Below, one piece after another: positions 56,906 through 62,712 of a stretch of 64,000 nucleotides of DNA. Origin of the DNA: an uncultured Chloroflexia bacterium (GTDB lineage Bacteria; Chloroflexota; Limnocylindria; Limnocylindrales; CSP1-4). The DNA is taken from NCBI GenBank assembly GCA_963828965.1, contig CAWHGL010000005.1, positions 180,352 to 244,351 on the forward strand. The letters are read 5' to 3'. Under the pieces are notes generated by a model. It searched no databases. It saw nothing but the letters and a program-made list of their open reading frames with translations, and had not been told where the DNA came from. A program made the position numbers and the translations under genes. Numbering within the stretch: position 1 is the first letter of the stretch; every line of letters begins with the position of its first letter.

Positions 56906-57477
56906 CAGCTCTGACCGGCGATCCGGCGGACCTCCTGCACCGAGGAGAGTCGCTCGTGGAACTCGGCACGGACCTGGTTGAGGACCTCCGCCGAGATGTC
57001 GAGCTCCTTGGCGATCTCGTTGACCTCGGTCGACTCCTCCGCCGAGATCGACCCGTCGGCCGCACTGATGACGAAGCAGGCGTGGATCATCGCGACCTTC
57101 TGCTCGTCGGTGGCGAGGGCGGCGAATTCGCGCGTGACGACGTAGTCCTCGGTGCCGCCCACGGTGTTGGCCTGGAACTTGGCCATCTCCGCGATGAGTA
57201 CCGCGGTCGCCTCGTCGAGGCCGGCTCGATCCTGGAGCTCGTGCTCGATGATCGCGGTCTCGTCCTCGCTGATGTCGAGGTCGGCGTTCGCGGCGCGGGC
57301 CAGCGTGTACGCCGCGGAGGCGACGAGGCGGGCCTGCTCGGGCGGCATCGCCTCAAGCTTGGCGACGATGCGCCGGACGGTGGCGGTGTCGCCGCTGGCG
57401 GTCTCGGCGCTCGTGAATGCGGCCTGGGTCGTGTCGGCTGCCGCGGTCTTGTCGGGGCCGAAGATGCGGTGGAACAT
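56905..57477 (-). CDS. TerB-like domain protein
   Basis: GAGAGG RBS; ARAANADLDISEDE and ISAADGSISAEESTEVNEIAKEL, two TerB-type metal-binding helical motifs. Confidence 0.75.
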   Translation of the reverse strand: MFHRIFGPDKTAAADTTQAAFTSAETASGDTATVRRIVAKLEAMPPEQARLVASAAYTLARAANADLDISEDETAIIEHELQDRAGLDEATAVLIAEMAKFQANTVGGTEDYVVTREFAALATDEQKVAMIHACFVISAADGSISAEESTEVNEIAKELDISAEVLNQVRAEFHERLSSVQEVRRIAGQS

Positions 57478-57563
57478 GGGTCCTCTCGGTGGTCGGTCTT
57501 GAGCATCGGGCCGCACGCGGCGGGCCGCGTGCCGGCGGTCGGCGCCACGATACCCTGTTCTGG

Positions 57564-58769
57564 ATGCGCACTCGCTTCGTGGACGTCCGCCTCATCGACG
57601 GCGTGGCCGACCACGTCCGCGAGCACGTCGACGTCGAGGTCGACGGGGAGCGGATCGCGGCCGTCGTGGCGCACGACCCGCGCCGGCCCGAGGCGCCCGA
57701 CGAGCACGTCATCGCGGGCGCCGGCCGCACGCTCCTGCCCGGCCTGATCGATGCCCACGCCCACTACACGTTCGACCCGACCGAGGGCTCGATCGCCACG
57801 ATCGCCCGACGCTCGGACGCCGAGATCGTCCTGGCCGCGGCGGGCCACGCGGCCCTCGCCCTGCGGGCCGGCGTCACCACGGCCCGCGGCGCCGGGTCGA
57901 TCCGGAACCTGGAGGTCGTGCTGCGCGACGCCATCGCGGCGGGGCGGATCCCCGGTCCGCGCCTCGTCGTGGCGGGCACCGCAGTCGGGATCACCGGCGG
58001 CCACGGTCACCAGTTCGGGCTGGAGGCGGATGGCCCTGAGGGCTTCGTGTCGGCGACGCGACGGGTCGTTCGCGACGGCGCCGACGTGGTCAAGGTCGTG
58101 GCATCGGAGGCGGCGATGCTCACGACGACGGGTCTTGCCCCGGGTCGCATGGTGCACGGCGCGCCGGAGCTGACCGAGGCGGAGCTGCGGGCCATCGTGG
58201 CGACCGCCGCCGATCTGGGGGTCCGGGTCATGAGTCACGCCCAGGACAGCGAATCCGTGCGCCGCTCGGCAGTCGCGGGCGTGACCAGCGTCGAGCACGC
58301 GTGGCTCGCCGATCGCGCCGCGATCGAGGCGCTGGCCGCCTCGGGTGGCTGGCTCGTGCCGACGCTCGTCGTCACCGACGTCAATCGGACGCTGCCCGGG
58401 CTGACGGCCGTCGAGCGCGAGCGCCAGGACCTGATCGAGCGGCGCCACCGTGCGTCGACCGAAGCCGCGATCGAGCTCGGCGTGCCCCTCGCGACCGGCA
58501 CCGACACGGGCGAGGTCGGGGTGACCGCCGACCTCGTCTGGCGCGAGATCGCGTTGCTGCACGAGCACGGCGCGAGCGCGATGACCGCGATCCAGGCGGC
58601 GACGTCCTCGGCGGCCCGGCTCCTCGGCGTCGAGGCCGAGACGGGCACCATCGAAGCCGGGAAGCTGGCCGATCTGGTCCTCGTCGACGGCGATCCACTC
58701 GGCGACCTGGGGCGACTGGCTACGCCGGCGTTCGTGATGCAGGCGGGCCGGATCGTCGTCGGCGGCTGA
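57564..58769 (+). CDS. Amidohydrolase family protein (Xaa-Pro dipeptidase-like metal-dependent hydrolase)
   Basis: PGLIDAHAH, GVTTAR, GGHG, VKV, SHA, EHA, GTD, GKLADLVLVDGDP. Confidence 0.9.
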   Translation: MRTRFVDVRLIDGVADHVREHVDVEVDGERIAAVVAHDPRRPEAPDEHVIAGAGRTLLPGLIDAHAHYTFDPTEGSIATIARRSDAEIVLAAAGHAALALRAGVTTARGAGSIRNLEVVLRDAIAAGRIPGPRLVVAGTAVGITGGHGHQFGLEADGPEGFVSATRRVVRDGADVVKVVASEAAMLTTTGLAPGRMVHGAPELTEAELRAIVATAADLGVRVMSHAQDSESVRRSAVAGVTSVEHAWLADRAAIEALAASGGWLVPTLVVTDVNRTLPGLTAVERERQDLIERRHRASTEAAIELGVPLATGTDTGEVGVTADLVWREIALLHEHGASAMTAIQAATSSAARLLGVEAETGTIEAGKLADLVLVDGDPLGDLGRLATPAFVMQAGRIVVGG

Positions 58770-59219: not shown

Positions 59220-59753
59220 CTAGCGTAGCGCCATGCTCATCCCCTGCACGGTGAGCGGCGAGCCTTCACGCAGGGGACCGCGCTCGCCCGTGTCGACGAA
59301 GCCCAAATCCTCATAGAACGCCACGGCGCCCGGGTTCGATGTCGTCACGCCGAGCTCGATCGCGCGGAAGCCCGCTGCACGAGCCCAGTCGACGACGCCG
59401 CGCACGAGGGCGGCGCCCAGCCCCTGGCGTCGAGCGACCGGATCCACCCACATGCCGAAGAGTCCGGCTGTTCCAGGGTCGTCAAGGCTCGGCCAGCCGA
59501 ACGCCATGCCCACGAGCGGGTCAGAGACCCCCGGCGCGGTCGCCACGAGGGCGATCGTCCCGCGCCGTTCGAGCCAGAACGCCCGCCACTCGTCCTCGGA
59601 TTGATCGGCTTCGCGTGCGAGCGTGGAGCCGAAGGCATCGGGTGCGTCGGCGAGCGCCCGCAGCCGGAGGGCCCGTACGGCGCGCCATTCGTCGGGGCGA
59701 GGGGCTCGGATGTCCACGACAACGGTGATGGTATCGCGTTCGGTGTGGCGCAT
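59220..59753 (-). CDS. GNAT acetyltransferase; start uncertain
   Basis: LRLRALADAPDAFGST, GMWVDPVARRQGLG, NPGAVAFYEDLGF. Confidence 0.85.
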   Translation of the reverse strand: MRHTERDTITVVVDIRAPRPDEWRAVRALRLRALADAPDAFGSTLAREADQSEDEWRAFWLERRGTIALVATAPGVSDPLVGMAFGWPSLDDPGTAGLFGMWVDPVARRQGLGAALVRGVVDWARAAGFRAIELGVTTSNPGAVAFYEDLGFVDTGERGPLREGSPLTVQGMSMALR

Positions 59754-59796
59754 ATCGAACAGCCGTTCTATCATCGGAGCGACGCCGGCCATCCGC

Positions 59797-59802
59797 TATA
59801 GT
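59797..59802 (+). promoter_or_regulatory. -10 hexamer of the tRNA-Leu promoter
   Basis: TATAGT 8 nt upstream of the tRNA 5' end. Confidence 0.6.
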
Positions 59803-59810
59803 GAGGTCCC

Positions 59811-59897
59811 GCGGCGGTGCTGGAATTGGCAGACAGGGCAGACTCAAACTCTGCTGTCCGAGAGGGCATGTGGGTTCGAGTCCCACCCGCCGTACCA
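59811..59897 (+). tRNA. tRNA-Leu(CAA), 87 nt, genome-encoded CCA
   Basis: Acceptor GCGGCGG/CCGCCGT plus A-CCA; D-arm with GG; anticodon stem GCAGA/TCTGC with loop CTCAAAC; long variable arm TGTCC-GAGA-GGGCA; T-arm GTGGG-TTCGAGT-CCCAC. Confidence 0.96.
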
Positions 59898-59924
59898 ACG
59901 ACCGGATCGAGCGAACCGACGTGC

Positions 59925-60515
59925 ATGGTCGCTGACGCTCGAACCCCTTGTGTCGATCCCCTTGCGCTCGGCTCGACCTATGCGCACCTGCTCGGGCTCT
60001 ACCTCGGTGACGGCTTCCTGTCGCTGGGACGCCGTGCGGTCTGGCGGCTCCGGATCACGCTCGACTCGAGGTACCCCGCGGTGATCGAGCAGGCCGCGTT
60101 CGTGACCGCCCAGGTTCGTGGGCGGCCAGCCGGCATCGTCGTGCGACAGGGCTGCGTCGATGTCTCGAGCTACTGGAAGCACTGGATCTGCTGCTTCCCG
60201 CAACATGGCCCCGGGGAGAAGCACACCCGGGACGTCGGCCTGCACCCATGGCAGCAGTCGATCGTCGAATCGTGGCCAGCGCCATTCCTGACGGGACTCA
60301 TCCATTCCGACGGATGTCGATGCCTGAACCGGGTGAAGGGCTACAGCTACCCGCGCTACTTCTTCTCGAATCGATCACAACAGATCCGCGACATGTTCGC
60401 CACGGCGTGCGCGCAGGTGGGCGTCGATAGTCGCCCTGCGGGTCGGTGGAACGTCTCGGTAGCGAGGCAGGACAGTGTCGCGCTGCTGGATCGACTGATC
60501 GTCCCGAAGGGCTGA
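59925..60515 (+). CDS. Two-motif LAGLIDADG-like endonuclease-fold protein (196 aa)
   Basis: Motif 1 YAHLLGLYLGDG and motif 2 FLTGLIHSDG, 100 residues apart; PQHGPG-KH, YPRYFFSN, NVSVAR. Confidence 0.8.
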   Translation: MVADARTPCVDPLALGSTYAHLLGLYLGDGFLSLGRRAVWRLRITLDSRYPAVIEQAAFVTAQVRGRPAGIVVRQGCVDVSSYWKHWICCFPQHGPGEKHTRDVGLHPWQQSIVESWPAPFLTGLIHSDGCRCLNRVKGYSYPRYFFSNRSQQIRDMFATACAQVGVDSRPAGRWNVSVARQDSVALLDRLIVPKG

Positions 60516-60529
60516 CGCCCCCACGGTGG

Positions 60530-60555
60530 GGAACCCGCCCGGGGCCGACCGCGTC
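60530..60555 (+). promoter_or_regulatory. Candidate ECF-sigma promoter upstream of the sigma gene
   Basis: GGAACC-N16-CGTC; the same motif occurs at 61899-61924. Confidence 0.65.
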
Positions 60556-60628
60556 TGGCCGGGCGACGATGCTAGACTCGCCGCGCCTCACGTCCCCATC
60601 AATCGCCGTCCGGAGGGACCCCTCGACC

Positions 60629-61238
60629 GTGGAGGACCTTCGCCCGACGACGGTCACCGACGACCCCGTCCAGCGCCGCGACCTGATCCTCATCGAGCAA
60701 GCCCGCGACGGCGACCTCGAGGCGTTCAACGACCTCGTCAGGCTGTACCAGGACTCGCTGTTCGCCTTGGTCGTGCGCATGGTCCCCGATCGCGACCAGG
60801 CATCGGACGCGGTCCAGGAGGCGTTCTTCTCGGCCTTCCGCAACCTGCACAACTTCCGTGGCGGGAACGTGAAGTCGTGGCTCAACCGCATCTGCGTCAA
60901 CGCGGCGATGGACACGCAGCGGGCGCGCAAGCGACGCCCCGTCCAGCCGTACCCGGAGCTCGATGACGAGAGCTGGCAGCCGCCGGCCCCGCGCGACCAG
61001 GATCCCGAGCGCCTCGCGGTCGACGCCGAGCGCAGCCGCACGCTCGCGCGAGGCCCTGACCCACATCACCGACGACCAACGCACCGCGATCGTCCTGTAC
61101 GACGTCGAGGGCTACGACTACGGCGAGATCGCCGACATGACCGGCGTCTCGCTCGGGACGGTGAAGTCGCGCATCCATCGTGGCCGGCTCTCCCTGCGCA
61201 GCCTCCTCGAGGACCGGATGGACCTGCTCCGTGGCTGA
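60629..61238 (+). CDS. ECF (sigma-24 / sigma70 group 4) RNA polymerase sigma factor; frameshift near 61050
   Basis: GDLEAFNDLV, DAVQEAF, SWLNRICVNAAMD (region 2); QRTAIVLYDVEGYDYGEIADMTGVSLGTVKSRIHRGR (region 4); GGAGG RBS before GTG 60629. Confidence 0.92.
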
Positions 61239-61859
61239 CGGCATCGCCATCGCCTTCGGACCACTGGGCAGACCCGCCGACCACGCCGCCCACGACCTCG
61301 TGCTGGTCGCCGAGGCGGCCGACCGTGGTGGCCGCCTGCCGGCCGCCCAGGCGTCCTGTCCGGACTGCCTGGCCCTCCACGCCGACCTCGTCCTGCTGGC
61401 GGCGGCCATGCCCGATGCGGCCCTGCCGGCCCGACCCCGCGACTACACCCTGAGCGAGGCCGATGCCGCCCGCCTCCGACCCGCCGGCTGGCGGCGCTGG
61501 CTGGCCGCCATCGGCACCTCGCGCGATGCCGTCACCCGGCCACTCGCGGTCGGGCTGACCACCATCGGCCTGGCCGGCCTGCTCGTGGCCAGCGTGCCGG
61601 GCATCCTGCCCTTCGGCAGTGCATCCTCGGGCGCGGCACCGGTCGACATGGAGATCGCGCCGCTGGCCGGAGCGACGGGACCCGTCGGTGCGTCCGGTGA
61701 TCTCGCCCGTGGTCCGCCGCCGTCGCGAAGGCTCGCGACACGGCCACGCCGGACACGCGGATGACCCCGATGCTGCTGGTTTCGGGCACGATGATCGTGG
61801 CCGGGACCGGGCTGCTGCTCGTGCGGTGGCGCGCCGCGCCGGCAGCGGGGGACCGGTGA
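61231..61859 (+). CDS. Putative anti-sigma factor 1 (CxxC domain, TM, linker, TM); frameshift near 61705-61715
   Basis: GTG overlaps the sigma stop; DHAAH...CPDC...H, RPRDYTL, TM1; a second TM (MLLVSGTMIVAGTGLLLVRWR) lies in the shifted frame ending at TGA 61859. Confidence 0.7.
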
Positions 61860-62332
61860 TGCGACCATCGTCGAACCCGGGCCGCCAGTCGGGCCGGGGG
61901 AACCACCCGTCCGCCACGCTCGTCAGAGCCACGACATGACCGATCCCCGAACCCCGTCGACCGCCGCCGACCACGCCACTCACGACCTCGTGCTGGTCGC
62001 CGAGGCGGCCGACCGTGGTGGCCGCCTGCCGGCCGCCCAGGCGTCCTGTCCGGACTGCCTGGCCCTCCACGCCGACCTGGTCCTGCTGGCGGCGGCCATG
62101 CCCGATGCGGCCCTGCCGGCCCGACCCCGCGACTACACCCTGAGCGAGGCCGATGCCGCCCGCCTCCGACCCGCCGGCTGGCGGCGCTGGCTGGCCGCCA
62201 TCGGCACCTCGCGCGATGCCGTCACCCGGCCACTCGCGGTCGGGCTGACCACCATCGGCCTGGCCGGCCTGCTCGTGGCCAGCGTGCCGGGCATCCTGCC
62301 CTTCGGCAGTGCGTCCTCGGGCGCGGCCCCGG
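61274..62332 (+). repeat. Direct repeat: 61274-61642 and 61964-62332 (369 bp, offset 690, about 5 mismatches)
   Basis: Line-by-line comparison; differences are GCC/ACT, CTC/CTG, GCA/GCG and GCA/GCC. Confidence 0.93.
61899..61924 (+). promoter_or_regulatory. Candidate ECF-sigma promoter upstream of anti-sigma 2
   Basis: GGAACC-N16-CGTC ending 11 nt before ATG 61936. Confidence 0.65.
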
Positions 62333-62712
62333 CGCCGGCCGACACCACGGTCGCCGGCGAAGCGGCGGCCGCTCCGTCCGCCGGGACATCGATGATGCTG
62401 GCCGTGCCGTCCGCCGCTCCAGCGGCAGCAGCCGCGCCCGTGGCGGCCGCCACCGCGAATGTCTCCGCCGAGCAGCCCGGGCTCGACAAGAGCGCCGCGC
62501 CATCGGGCGAGGCGGACCAGGTCTTTTCGGGTGGCGACGACGCGACGTCCGCCGCATCCGGCCAGACGCAGCGACAGCTGGCGGCCCCAAGTGCCGATGT
62601 CGCCGTGCGCGACGACGCATCCGGCGTGTCGGTGCTGTTCGTCGTCGCCGGCGCGTTGCTGATCGTCGGTCTTGGCCTGTTCGGCCTCCGCTGGAGCGCC
62701 CGCCGCGGCTGA
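61936..62712 (+). CDS. Putative anti-sigma factor 2 (paralogue of the preceding gene)
   Basis: Same N-terminal CPDC domain and TM1, Ala/Ser-rich linker, C-terminal TM (VLFVVAGALLIVGLGLFGLRW). Confidence 0.75.
   Translation: MTDPRTPSTAADHATHDLVLVAEAADRGGRLPAAQASCPDCLALHADLVLLAAAMPDAALPARPRDYTLSEADAARLRPAGWRRWLAAIGTSRDAVTRPLAVGLTTIGLAGLLVASVPGILPFGSASSGAAPAPADTTVAGEAAAAPSAGTSMMLAVPSAAPAAAAAPVAAATANVSAEQPGLDKSAAPSGEADQVFSGGDDATSAASGQTQRQLAAPSADVAVRDDASGVSVLFVVAGALLIVGLGLFGLRWSARRG

Follow-up and report, generated by a model that had tools for sequence, protein, structure and literature searches.

A Putative SOS-Inducible LAGLIDADG Homing Endonuclease Gene Beside tRNA-Leu(CAA) in a Chloroflexota Genome

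We analysed a stretch of 64,000 nucleotides from the genome of an uncultured Chloroflexia bacterium (contig CAWHGL010000005.1), which is called the window below. In it, a leucine tRNA gene with the anticodon CAA, tRNA-Leu(CAA), is followed by a small free-standing open reading frame (ORF) with two LAGLIDADG motifs. We consider it probable, if by no means certain, that this ORF encodes a LAGLIDADG homing endonuclease which is free-standing, inducible by the SOS response and directed at the tRNA-Leu locus, and which here travels with its own tRNA allele. The unit would consist of a promoter with an SOS box, the tRNA-Leu(CAA) gene and the gene of a single-chain LAGLIDADG endonuclease. The analysis documents the fold, the retained catalytic residues, purifying selection, the linkage to the tRNA, presence, absence and decay of the gene, the SOS box, and the exchange of tRNA alleles; from sequence comparison and modelling we infer the cleavage, its target, the control by LexA, the direction of gene conversion and the translation start. 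According to the proposed mechanism, the nuclease would be co-transcribed with the tRNA, since no terminator separates them. LexA would keep its level low, and activation of RecA by DNA damage or by incoming single-stranded DNA would induce it. Where a tRNA-Leu(CAA) allele has no such unit or is sensitive in sequence, the enzyme would break both DNA strands at a specific site at or beside it. Repair from the nuclease-bearing copy would install the nuclease gene, often with its own resistant tRNA allele, which amounts to intronless homing. The tRNA is essential and single-copy, and therefore the target site cannot be lost, and the nuclease gene itself would pass through cycles of invasion, decay and loss.

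The tRNA gene and the predicted nuclease

ARAGORN made a single tRNA call across the window, an uninterrupted tRNA-Leu(CAA) on the forward strand (59811-59897). It is a type II tRNA with a long variable arm and scores 50 bits with the Rfam tRNA model, whose gathering score is 29. Only one of the 52 tRNAs of the 3.7-Mb genome has the CAA anticodon, which makes this gene the sole reader of UUG. The ORF (P0001; 59925-60515, forward strand) encodes 196 amino acids from the ATG at 59925, and its stop codon is at 60513-60515. The 27-nt spacer between them (59898-59924, same strand) has no terminator and no clear ribosome-binding site and is possibly already coding; a consensus scan found neither a terminator-like nor a sigma-70-like site between the tRNA gene and the ORF. 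The G+C content of the ORF is 65.3% versus 71.8% for the window, and its G+C content at third codon positions (GC3) is 0.80 versus 0.87-0.92 in most neighbours. An earlier reading made from the letters of this DNA alone (the sequence-only reading) had described an intact tRNA-Leu with a 196-amino-acid ORF 27 nt behind it, no terminator between them, and more A/T-ending codons than in the neighbours. All of this was reproduced with ARAGORN, Rfam, the ORF coordinates, the consensus scan and GC3. It had also seen no intron, intein, integrase or duplicated tRNA 3' end, and the repeat, Rfam and neighbour scans agree with it. There was no Rfam intron match in 59500-60700, no host protein that could harbour an intein is encoded around the ORF, and no integrase is among its neighbours. 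Neither a second copy of the tRNA 3' end nor a relic of a displaced or native-type tRNA was found at the locus; since no spare tRNA piece is present, the mORF-style "spare piece" model is inapplicable to this locus.

The curated sequence models recognised the product poorly. The Pfam model LAGLIDADG_3 matched it with an E-value of 0.005 and 17.5 bits, under the cut-off of 22.5; NCBIfam gave no match, and sequence matches in the Protein Data Bank (PDB) were weak. Therefore, membership in the superfamily rests on structure and motifs. Our search found no solved structure for any family member, and we used an AlphaFold2 (AF2) model built from 106 homologues. The model of the 196-residue form has a predicted local distance difference test score (pLDDT) of 93.7 and a predicted template modelling score (pTM) of 0.90. 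Its secondary structure reads H-E-E-H-E-E-H twice, that is, two tandem alpha-beta-beta-alpha-beta-beta-alpha domains. The best Foldseek matches in the PDB were all LAGLIDADG proteins, as the sequence-only reading would lead one to expect. The top match was the TliVMA intein endonuclease (E 2.5e-8, query TM score (TMq) 0.68), and the further matches were I-Tsp061I, the bI3 maturase, I-AniI, PI-SceI, I-SceI, I-DmoI and WhiA (8dy9_I, 3hyj).

The first LAGLIDADG motif, LLGLYLGDG (L22-G30), is encoded at 59988-60014 and the second, FLTGLIHSDG (F121-G130), at 60285-60314, both on the forward strand. Their catalytic-position residues, D29 and D129, are spaced exactly 100 residues apart, which matches the spacing and the retained acids noted from the sequence alone. 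Both are invariant in the alignments A1 and A2 (>100 sequences). In the family profile alignment, D29 corresponds to the motif-1 Asp of I-AniI and D129 to its motif-2 Glu. Between the motifs lies a loop of the type PQHGxGxKHxR, here FPQHGPGEKHTR (60195-60230, forward strand), whose Q93, G95, G97, K99, H100 and R102 are invariant across 23 diverse members. The loop, which is specific to the family, and several Cys and His residues are invariant in the alignments, and the loop may contact DNA or lie at the periphery of the active site. Judged by the model and the alignments, the ORF product has all the requirements of a monomeric LAGLIDADG nuclease. Enzymes of this superfamily cut long DNA targets (14-40 bp) at specific sites, and such cleavage is predicted here.

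Like the single-chain homing endonucleases I-DmoI, I-Tsp061I, I-AniI, I-SceI and PI-SceI, the product has the two-domain fold (TMq 0.55-0.68), and both of its motif helices end in an acidic residue. It differs from them in having only 10-17% sequence identity to them, in its own PQHGxGxKHxR loop and conserved Cys and His residues, and in being encoded outside any intron or intein. The catalytic acids are lost in pure maturases and in the sporulation regulator WhiA, whose helix-turn-helix (HTH) domain is C-terminal. In its combination of a LAGLIDADG scaffold with an HTH, WhiA of the actinobacteria resembles the family, and it is one of the fold matches. The family differs in that its acids are invariant and its HTH is N-terminal or absent; neither lost acids nor a C-terminal HTH, the marks of a domesticated regulator of the WhiA type, were found in it.

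Linkage to tRNA-Leu genes and exchange of tRNA alleles

The homologues number more than 7,899 proteins in a collection clustered at 90%, and 2,237 clusters of a library clustered at 50% match the family, 245 of them below 1e-30. Most members are 245-260 amino acids long and have an N-terminal domain of the HTH_23/HTH_38 type and a Cys pair. The members of the window's Chloroflexota clade have no N-terminal HTH; it has been lost there. Thus, the family that the sequence-only reading had pointed to, annotated as HTH proteins or transcriptional regulators, does exist, and this copy is one without the HTH. Carriers in Actinomycetota include Streptomyces, Kitasatospora, Mycolicibacterium, Solirubrobacterales, Acidimicrobiia and Thermoleophilia; outside this phylum they belong to Chloroflexota and Dormibacterota. 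One carrier record, titled "MAG: Bifidobacterium breve" (genome G438, locus L029 in our numbering), belongs to a genome of about 5.0 Mb with an actinomycete-type nuclease locus, and its species label looks doubtful. A literature search found no paper that describes the family or its linkage to tRNA-Leu, and the family is apparently undescribed.

We examined 166 family loci from genomes and metagenomes for a tRNA-Leu gene within 500 nt. It turned out that 159 of them have one, and two of the remaining seven simply have no flanking sequence. The anticodon is CAA in 142 cases, CAG in 11 and TAG in 6. The tRNA gene shares the strand of the nuclease gene and lies upstream of it in 96 of the 159 loci and downstream in 28; where the two are on opposite strands, it lies upstream in 24 and downstream in 11. 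The surrounding genes change as well: an extracytoplasmic function (ECF) sigma factor gene in Chloroflexota, and genes for a response regulator and pyruvate kinase (pyk) in Streptomyces. The pairing thus survives inversion and a change of surroundings, so it is not an operon effect, and the link is to the tRNA gene as DNA. A habit of sitting beside tRNA genes had been mentioned in the sequence-only reading, and the count confirms it. Its suggestion that the gene uses the tRNA promoter held only in part: the linkage does not depend on orientation, and in the window's clade the tRNA is preceded by a putative promoter of the unit's own, with an SOS box.

A tree of 86 nuclease domains, whose deep branches are not resolved, groups the sequences by taxon and by tRNA partner. 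Its groups are Streptomyces with Kitasatospora, three Solirubrobacterales clades, Acidimicrobiales, and Chloroflexota, the last with a support of 93 in the Shimodaira–Hasegawa-like approximate likelihood ratio test (SH-aLRT); the window falls inside a five-member clade, starred in the tree. The three Solirubrobacterales clades are separate and sit by CAA, CAG and TAG genes, respectively. In several Solirubrobacterales loci (L035, L043, L067, L036-L047), genes for tRNA-Trp, tRNA-Leu(TAG) and tRNA-Leu(CAA) lie within a few kb, and the nuclease lineages differ by isoacceptor.

Both empty and occupied sites, a comparison proposed along with the sequence-only reading, exist in close relatives. The genome that contains the window has one family copy. 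The gene was carried by 3 of 301 genomes in a sample of the phylum, by 8 of 151 genomes (3 of 49 genera) in the window's own family and by four genomes of its own genus. The congener G428 has the same synteny, and its flanking genes are as similar to those of the window as are the flanks of carriers (sigma factor 84%, PolA 88%). The space between these flanks contains no nuclease gene: apart from about 320 nt of non-coding DNA, there is just a tRNA-Leu(CAA), which is encoded on the opposite strand and is 75% identical to that of the window. Homology between the two genomes resumes near 60530, at the GGAACC box of the ECF sigma promoter, which places the right-hand junction of the unit at 60516-60529 (no strand assigned).

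The nuclease-linked tRNAs are 91-95% identical across three genera and have the acceptor stem GCGGCGG/CCGCCGY (in the window, GCGGCGG/CCGCCGT), versus GCCGAAG/CTTCGGY in the nuclease-free relatives. In nuclease-free family members the tRNA mostly points away from the sigma gene. Linked and native tRNAs are thus distinct types at the same site, which indicates that the nuclease gene came in along with a tRNA allele of another type and that this allele took the place of the native one. In the carrier G434 the acceptor stem of the neighbouring tRNA-Leu(CAA) is GCCGGGG/CCCCGGC, which is neither of the common types, and this tRNA is on the strand opposite the sigma gene, like the native tRNAs. G311 has the nuclease-type tRNA and the upstream box with the nuclease gene absent, as expected after nuclease loss. 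As a further candidate for an empty site, G261 was rejected; its contig ends 38 nt past the tRNA, and it is uninformative.

The same pattern of presence and absence at a fixed site beside a host gene was found in Streptomyces. The gene is present in 107 of 151 species genomes and absent from 44. About 90 of the 107 copies look intact, and about 17 are split, truncated or interrupted by stop codons. Four nuclease-free Streptomyces genomes have the same locus, response regulator, tRNA(CAA) and pyk, minus exactly the 0.85-kb gene. Tandem pairs occur in three Streptomyces genomes; in G498 (C1:2578970-2580523), G513 (C50:6967-8527) and G539 (C1:35057-36609) the two family genes are head to tail, about 50 nt apart and both intact. 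Just 3' of the Streptomyces tRNA(CAA), in L211-L217 and L231, there is a conserved trailer, TTTTCCTTCGATTCNAAGG, with an inverted repeat. It is present in nuclease-plus and nuclease-minus alleles, and the nuclease gene is inserted just past it. The trailer may be a processing or termination signal or a part of the target.

In this genus, too, the element is linked to diversified alleles of the host gene. We compared 378 Streptomyces/Kitasatospora pairs and found that the identity of tRNA(CAA) correlates neither with that of the flanks (rho 0.01) nor with that of the nuclease (rho -0.05). In pairs with pyk at least 93% identical, tRNA(CAA) identity is bimodal, either 0.51-0.69 or 0.89-1.00. This tRNA exists as discrete allele classes with compensated stems. 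Among the loci L032-L098 and L231 there are at least four such classes plus type II versions, and they are shuffled among species whose flanks are 93-97% identical. As a control, a tRNA-Leu(CAG) probe matched 15 of 15 genomes at 87-100% identity versus 7 of 15 at 75-100% for the CAA probe; BLASTN with a tRNA probe is insensitive across a family, cross-matches other isoacceptors and misses the known copy in G436. Such wholesale swapping of an essential tRNA at the nuclease site is what targeted breaks with repair from foreign alleles would produce.

Most Streptomyces alleles are type I tRNA-Leu(CAA) genes of 74-77 nt. In Streptomyces sp. NBC_01166 (L231, G436:C1:2213623-2213696), the CAA anticodon is found only in a 75-nt type I tRNA-Leu. 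Leucyl-tRNA synthetase charges the type I tRNA-Leu(CAA) of Streptomyces coelicolor, and its deletion was not possible (Fan et al. 2019, PMC6614811). In that paper, the origin of this tRNA and its patchy occurrence in Streptomyces count as unexplained, and nothing is said of the nuclease gene next to it (PMC6614811). The same tRNA with a short variable loop stands beside the nuclease gene in many Streptomyces; the tRNA of the window differs from it in being of the ordinary type II.

The SOS box, the translation start and the neighbouring genes

About 42 nt upstream of the tRNA gene is a LexA-type SOS box, GAACAGCCGTTC, a palindrome of the form GAAC-N4-GTTC (59757-59768, no strand assigned) and the only such box in the window. 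It is directly followed by a -10-like hexamer, TATCAT (59769-59774, forward strand), a putative damage-inducible promoter, P1, so that a LexA operator would overlap the promoter. A second -10-like hexamer, TATAGT, lies 8 nt 5' of the tRNA (59797-59802, forward strand) and may be a proximal tRNA promoter, P2. The LexA-type box with its own -10-like hexamer upstream of the tRNA is new for this locus; neither it nor the open frame through the tRNA (see below) was noted in the sequence-only reading. In all 15 of the 15 HTH-less relatives the same layout, GAACAnnTGTTC-TATAAT/TATACT, is found at an equal distance upstream of the tRNA. The hexamer after the box is TATAAT, TATACT or TATCAT in these relatives, and TATAGT, TATATT or TATGAT recurs at the place of P2. 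Six of the seven nuclease-free native tRNA loci are without the box arrangement.

Gram-positive bacteria have GAAC-N4-GTTC as their LexA box, and this motif has also been reported for Dehalococcoides. In the window's genome the same motif precedes dinB (IMS), an imuA-like gene with a RecA fold, dnaE2 (PHP and Pol III alpha domains), uvrB and uvrA, and the box of dnaE2 has the identical box-plus-TATACT layout. By these motifs, the genome has a recognisable SOS regulon. The boxes were located at C2:1251995, C3:245718, C3:250779, C5:253456, C5:257836, C2:49166 and C2:49200 of this genome (G000), and a double box, whose copies are 34 nt apart, lies downstream of a second dinB-like gene.

Over 167 family loci, 60 exact boxes were counted in the 73 kb upstream of the nuclease domain versus 6 in the other 859 kb, an approximately 118-fold enrichment. 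The exact boxes belong to 59 of the 167 loci, including those of Solirubrobacterales, Acidimicrobiales and Thermoleophilales. A box that is conserved, enriched and shared with SOS genes indicates that the unit is very probably repressed by LexA. Induction upon RecA activation would coincide with DNA entry and a high recombination capacity, which would suit a homing enzyme.

It is possible that translation of the nuclease begins upstream of the ATG at 59925. The frame is open back through the tRNA from 59817, with a GTG at 59817 and an ATG at 59868, and the ATG at 59925 stands just after the first Cys codon. In the HTH-less clade, most of the variation in the segment Cys-x-Ala-x-Pro-Pro-Asp-x3-Cys, which precedes motif 1, is at third codon positions; this synonymous variation implies that the segment is translated. 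No ATG, GTG or TTG lies between the tRNA and the Cys segment in 11 of 13 in-phase loci, and the sole in-frame start in those loci is an NUG inside the tRNA, where the variable arm meets the T stem. Its counterpart in the window is the ATG at 59868, which would give a 5' extension of the ORF at 59868-59924 (forward strand). In the relatives, the second conserved Cys codon is reached 48-57 nt after the end of the tRNA, a distance that is mostly a multiple of three, although this reflects few independent events. Through the tRNA, stop codons were found in the nuclease frame in 0 of 15 loci versus 2 of 15 and 9 of 15 in the other frames, which in G+C-rich DNA is suggestive only. In the AF2 model of the 215-residue form, the tRNA-encoded residues have a pLDDT of 54 and the Cys-pair segment 72-79. 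Transcripts that have not been processed may be translated from a start within the tRNA sequence, or initiation may be non-canonical.

Database annotation of the family is affected by the same adjacency. Many entries of 232-233 amino acids start with MLELA.RADSNSA.RE..WVRVPPAVP, which is the tRNA translated in frame; the gene callers had run into the tRNA gene. In L186/P0186 and in P0172, the translated tRNA, with the T arm read as "CGFESHR", is N-terminal or stands between the HTH and the LAGLIDADG core, and these are merged gene calls.

In the window the unit has ordinary chromosomal neighbours (genes for TerB, an amidohydrolase, GNAT, ECF sigma and PolA 5'-exonuclease), and searches with the PADLOC library of defence systems and the PHROGs library of phage families gave nothing meaningful. 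The region 5' of the tRNA is a small variable patch among relatives. The GNAT acetyltransferase gene (59220-59792, reverse strand), between a conserved 146-amino-acid gene and the tRNA unit, is present only in this genome, and the congeners are without it. Its longest ORF would overrun the SOS box, and the true start is probably an internal Met at 59753. The amidohydrolase gene (57417-58769) is present in G428, G261 and L022 and absent in G124, G368 and G391. Beyond the ECF sigma gene there is a direct repeat of 300 nt (61274-61573 and 61964-62263, 99% identical, copies 690 nt apart). It doubles most of a putative anti-sigma gene 3' of the sigma gene, and the ORFs at 61180-61764 and 61936-62712 have about 115 identical residues in common.

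Competing explanations, related homing systems and significance

Several observations weigh against an actively homing element that travels with a resistant tRNA allele. Much of the data would be explained equally well by long vertical inheritance with repeated loss, because in Streptomyces nuclease identity tracks that of the flanking genes (rho 0.65) and no recent transfer was detected, the large clades follow taxonomy, and the plasmid and phage collections searched contain no copies. Specifically, no Streptomyces pair had a nuclease more similar than its flanks, and protein searches of a plasmid collection and of a phage collection of 50,697 records found no family member. The copy in the congener G391 has a 1-nt deletion in a long-read assembly, which may be an assembly error. 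A simple model of resistant pairs would predict that the allele class of the tRNA goes with the nuclease clade, but in Streptomyces it does not, and none of the exact SOS boxes belongs to a Streptomyces locus. The synonymous divergence (dS) of the nuclease gene, 2-5 times that of both flanking genes, counts in favour of homing, as does the purifying selection described below, but the higher dS could reflect weaker codon bias instead of older alleles. The indirect signs of biased transmission are mixed.

The main rival is a nuclease of the HO kind, domesticated and retained by the host, site-specific, passed on vertically together with the tRNA-Leu locus and turned on by the SOS response. The tracking of the flanks, the taxonomic clades and the absence from the two collections would suit it as well. 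Possibly, the host would benefit from recombination or allele replacement at tRNA-Leu, or from the cutting of foreign DNA that carries tRNA-Leu. In close pairs the ratio of nonsynonymous to synonymous divergence (dN/dS) of the nuclease gene is 0.12-0.28, and the protein is therefore under purifying selection. It is intact in about 60% of Streptomyces species, its clades follow the tRNA isoacceptor as well as taxonomy, and membership in the LexA regulon is typical of host functions. Against this, the gene is dispensable, with 44 absent and about 17 broken copies among 151 Streptomyces and with absence from 143 of 151 genomes of the window's own family; it also evolves 3-4 times faster than its neighbours, and its G+C content is under that of the host. 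We therefore regard a host-kept nuclease as a serious but rather unlikely explanation.

A non-catalytic DNA-binding regulator of tRNA-Leu(CAA) or its neighbours, analogous to WhiA, is improbable. The N-terminal HTH of most members, the name "transcriptional regulator" that one source gives to a member and the presence of WhiA among the fold matches would suit it, and so would an adjacency independent of orientation, which a cis-acting regulator may share. However, both catalytic acids are invariant in more than 100 sequences, the HTH is dispensable in the window's clade, and the gene is frequently lost while the essential tRNA stays. Still less probable is an RNA-binding maturase or processing helper for pre-tRNA-Leu, which had been offered as an alternative in the sequence-only reading. 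The fold matches do include the bI3 maturase and the bifunctional I-AniI, and the gene would be co-transcribed with the tRNA in the window's clade; yet the tRNA has no intron, it is on the opposite strand in 35 of 159 loci and downstream in 28, and nuclease-free relatives make the same tRNA. Finally, we give hardly any credit to a remnant cargo gene of an integrative element attached at tRNA-Leu, even though tRNA genes are common integration sites and the gene is poorer in G+C than the host, as there is no integrase, tRNA 3'-end repeat or further island gene, the empty sites show that the insert is the gene alone, and the same pairing recurs in 159 loci.

With regard to the origin of the Chloroflexota copies, a cross-phylum transfer into this phylum is plausible, given their rarity in it and a tRNA type that resembles Thermoleophilia loci. 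The spread between phyla that the sequence-only reading had anticipated is thus weakly favoured, the Chloroflexota copies being one rare clade (3 of 301 genomes) among actinobacterial lineages.

For the proposed SOS-inducible homing endonuclease, the closest known system in its logic is the WHO elements of Torulaspora yeasts, relatives of HO (Osborne, Monnin & Wolfe, bioRxiv 10.64898/2026.08.13.744650). In both, a free-standing LAGLIDADG gene stands beside an essential host gene, outside an intron or intein, and the host gene occurs in divergent alleles, which in WHO differ in their sensitivity to cleavage. In both, the nuclease genes evolve fast, decay and are sometimes in tandem (here in three Streptomyces genomes), and the copy of the host gene is apparently replaced along with the element. 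The system described here differs in being bacterial and in having tRNA-Leu, not a protein-coding gene, as its host gene. Here the whole tRNA is exchanged and no displaced fragment is left, whereas in WHO it is the 3' half of FBA1. The extra domain is an HTH or a Cys pair here and a zinc finger in WHO; the promoter here has an SOS box, and allele-specific cleavage is putative.

Phage T4 has free-standing homing endonucleases of the seg/mob groups, among them SegB, a GIY-YIG enzyme encoded in the T4 tRNA gene cluster that takes part in intronless homing. SegB is second closest in logic, as it is also a free-standing endonuclease gene that adjoins tRNA genes. SegB spreads when it cuts an allele without the nuclease gene and the flanks are co-converted, and we propose that the likeness extends to this. 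It differs in being of the GIY-YIG type and phage-borne, whereas the present family is LAGLIDADG, chromosomal and specific to tRNA-Leu.

We tentatively suggest, although we would not call this likely, that the family may be a bacterial counterpart of the WHO elements of yeasts and act as a gene drive that the SOS response triggers and that is directed at an essential tRNA gene. If so, an arms race would account both for the hypervariability of the tRNA-Leu(CAA) isoacceptor in Actinomycetota and for the aberrant type I tRNA-Leu, without a long variable arm, by which many Streptomyces decode UUG. The ORF of the Chloroflexota clade would then begin inside the tRNA (at the ATG 59868 here), and only unprocessed pre-tRNA read-through would be translated, which would keep a dangerous enzyme at a trace level.

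For annotation, it matters that gene callers routinely extend the ORFs of this family into the tRNA gene. If the proposed reading is true, a common gene of soil bacteria, now labelled "hypothetical" or "transcriptional regulator", would be a chromosomal homing endonuclease specialised for tRNA-Leu and wired to DNA damage. This would add a third way of life for bacterial homing genes beside introns and inteins, and the family would provide compact (about 190 amino acids) single-chain LAGLIDADG scaffolds with natural specificity variants. It would also offer a concrete and testable cause for the unusual variety of tRNA-Leu(CAA) in Actinomycetota, of which the still unexplained type I tRNA-Leu of Streptomyces is one case (PMC6614811).

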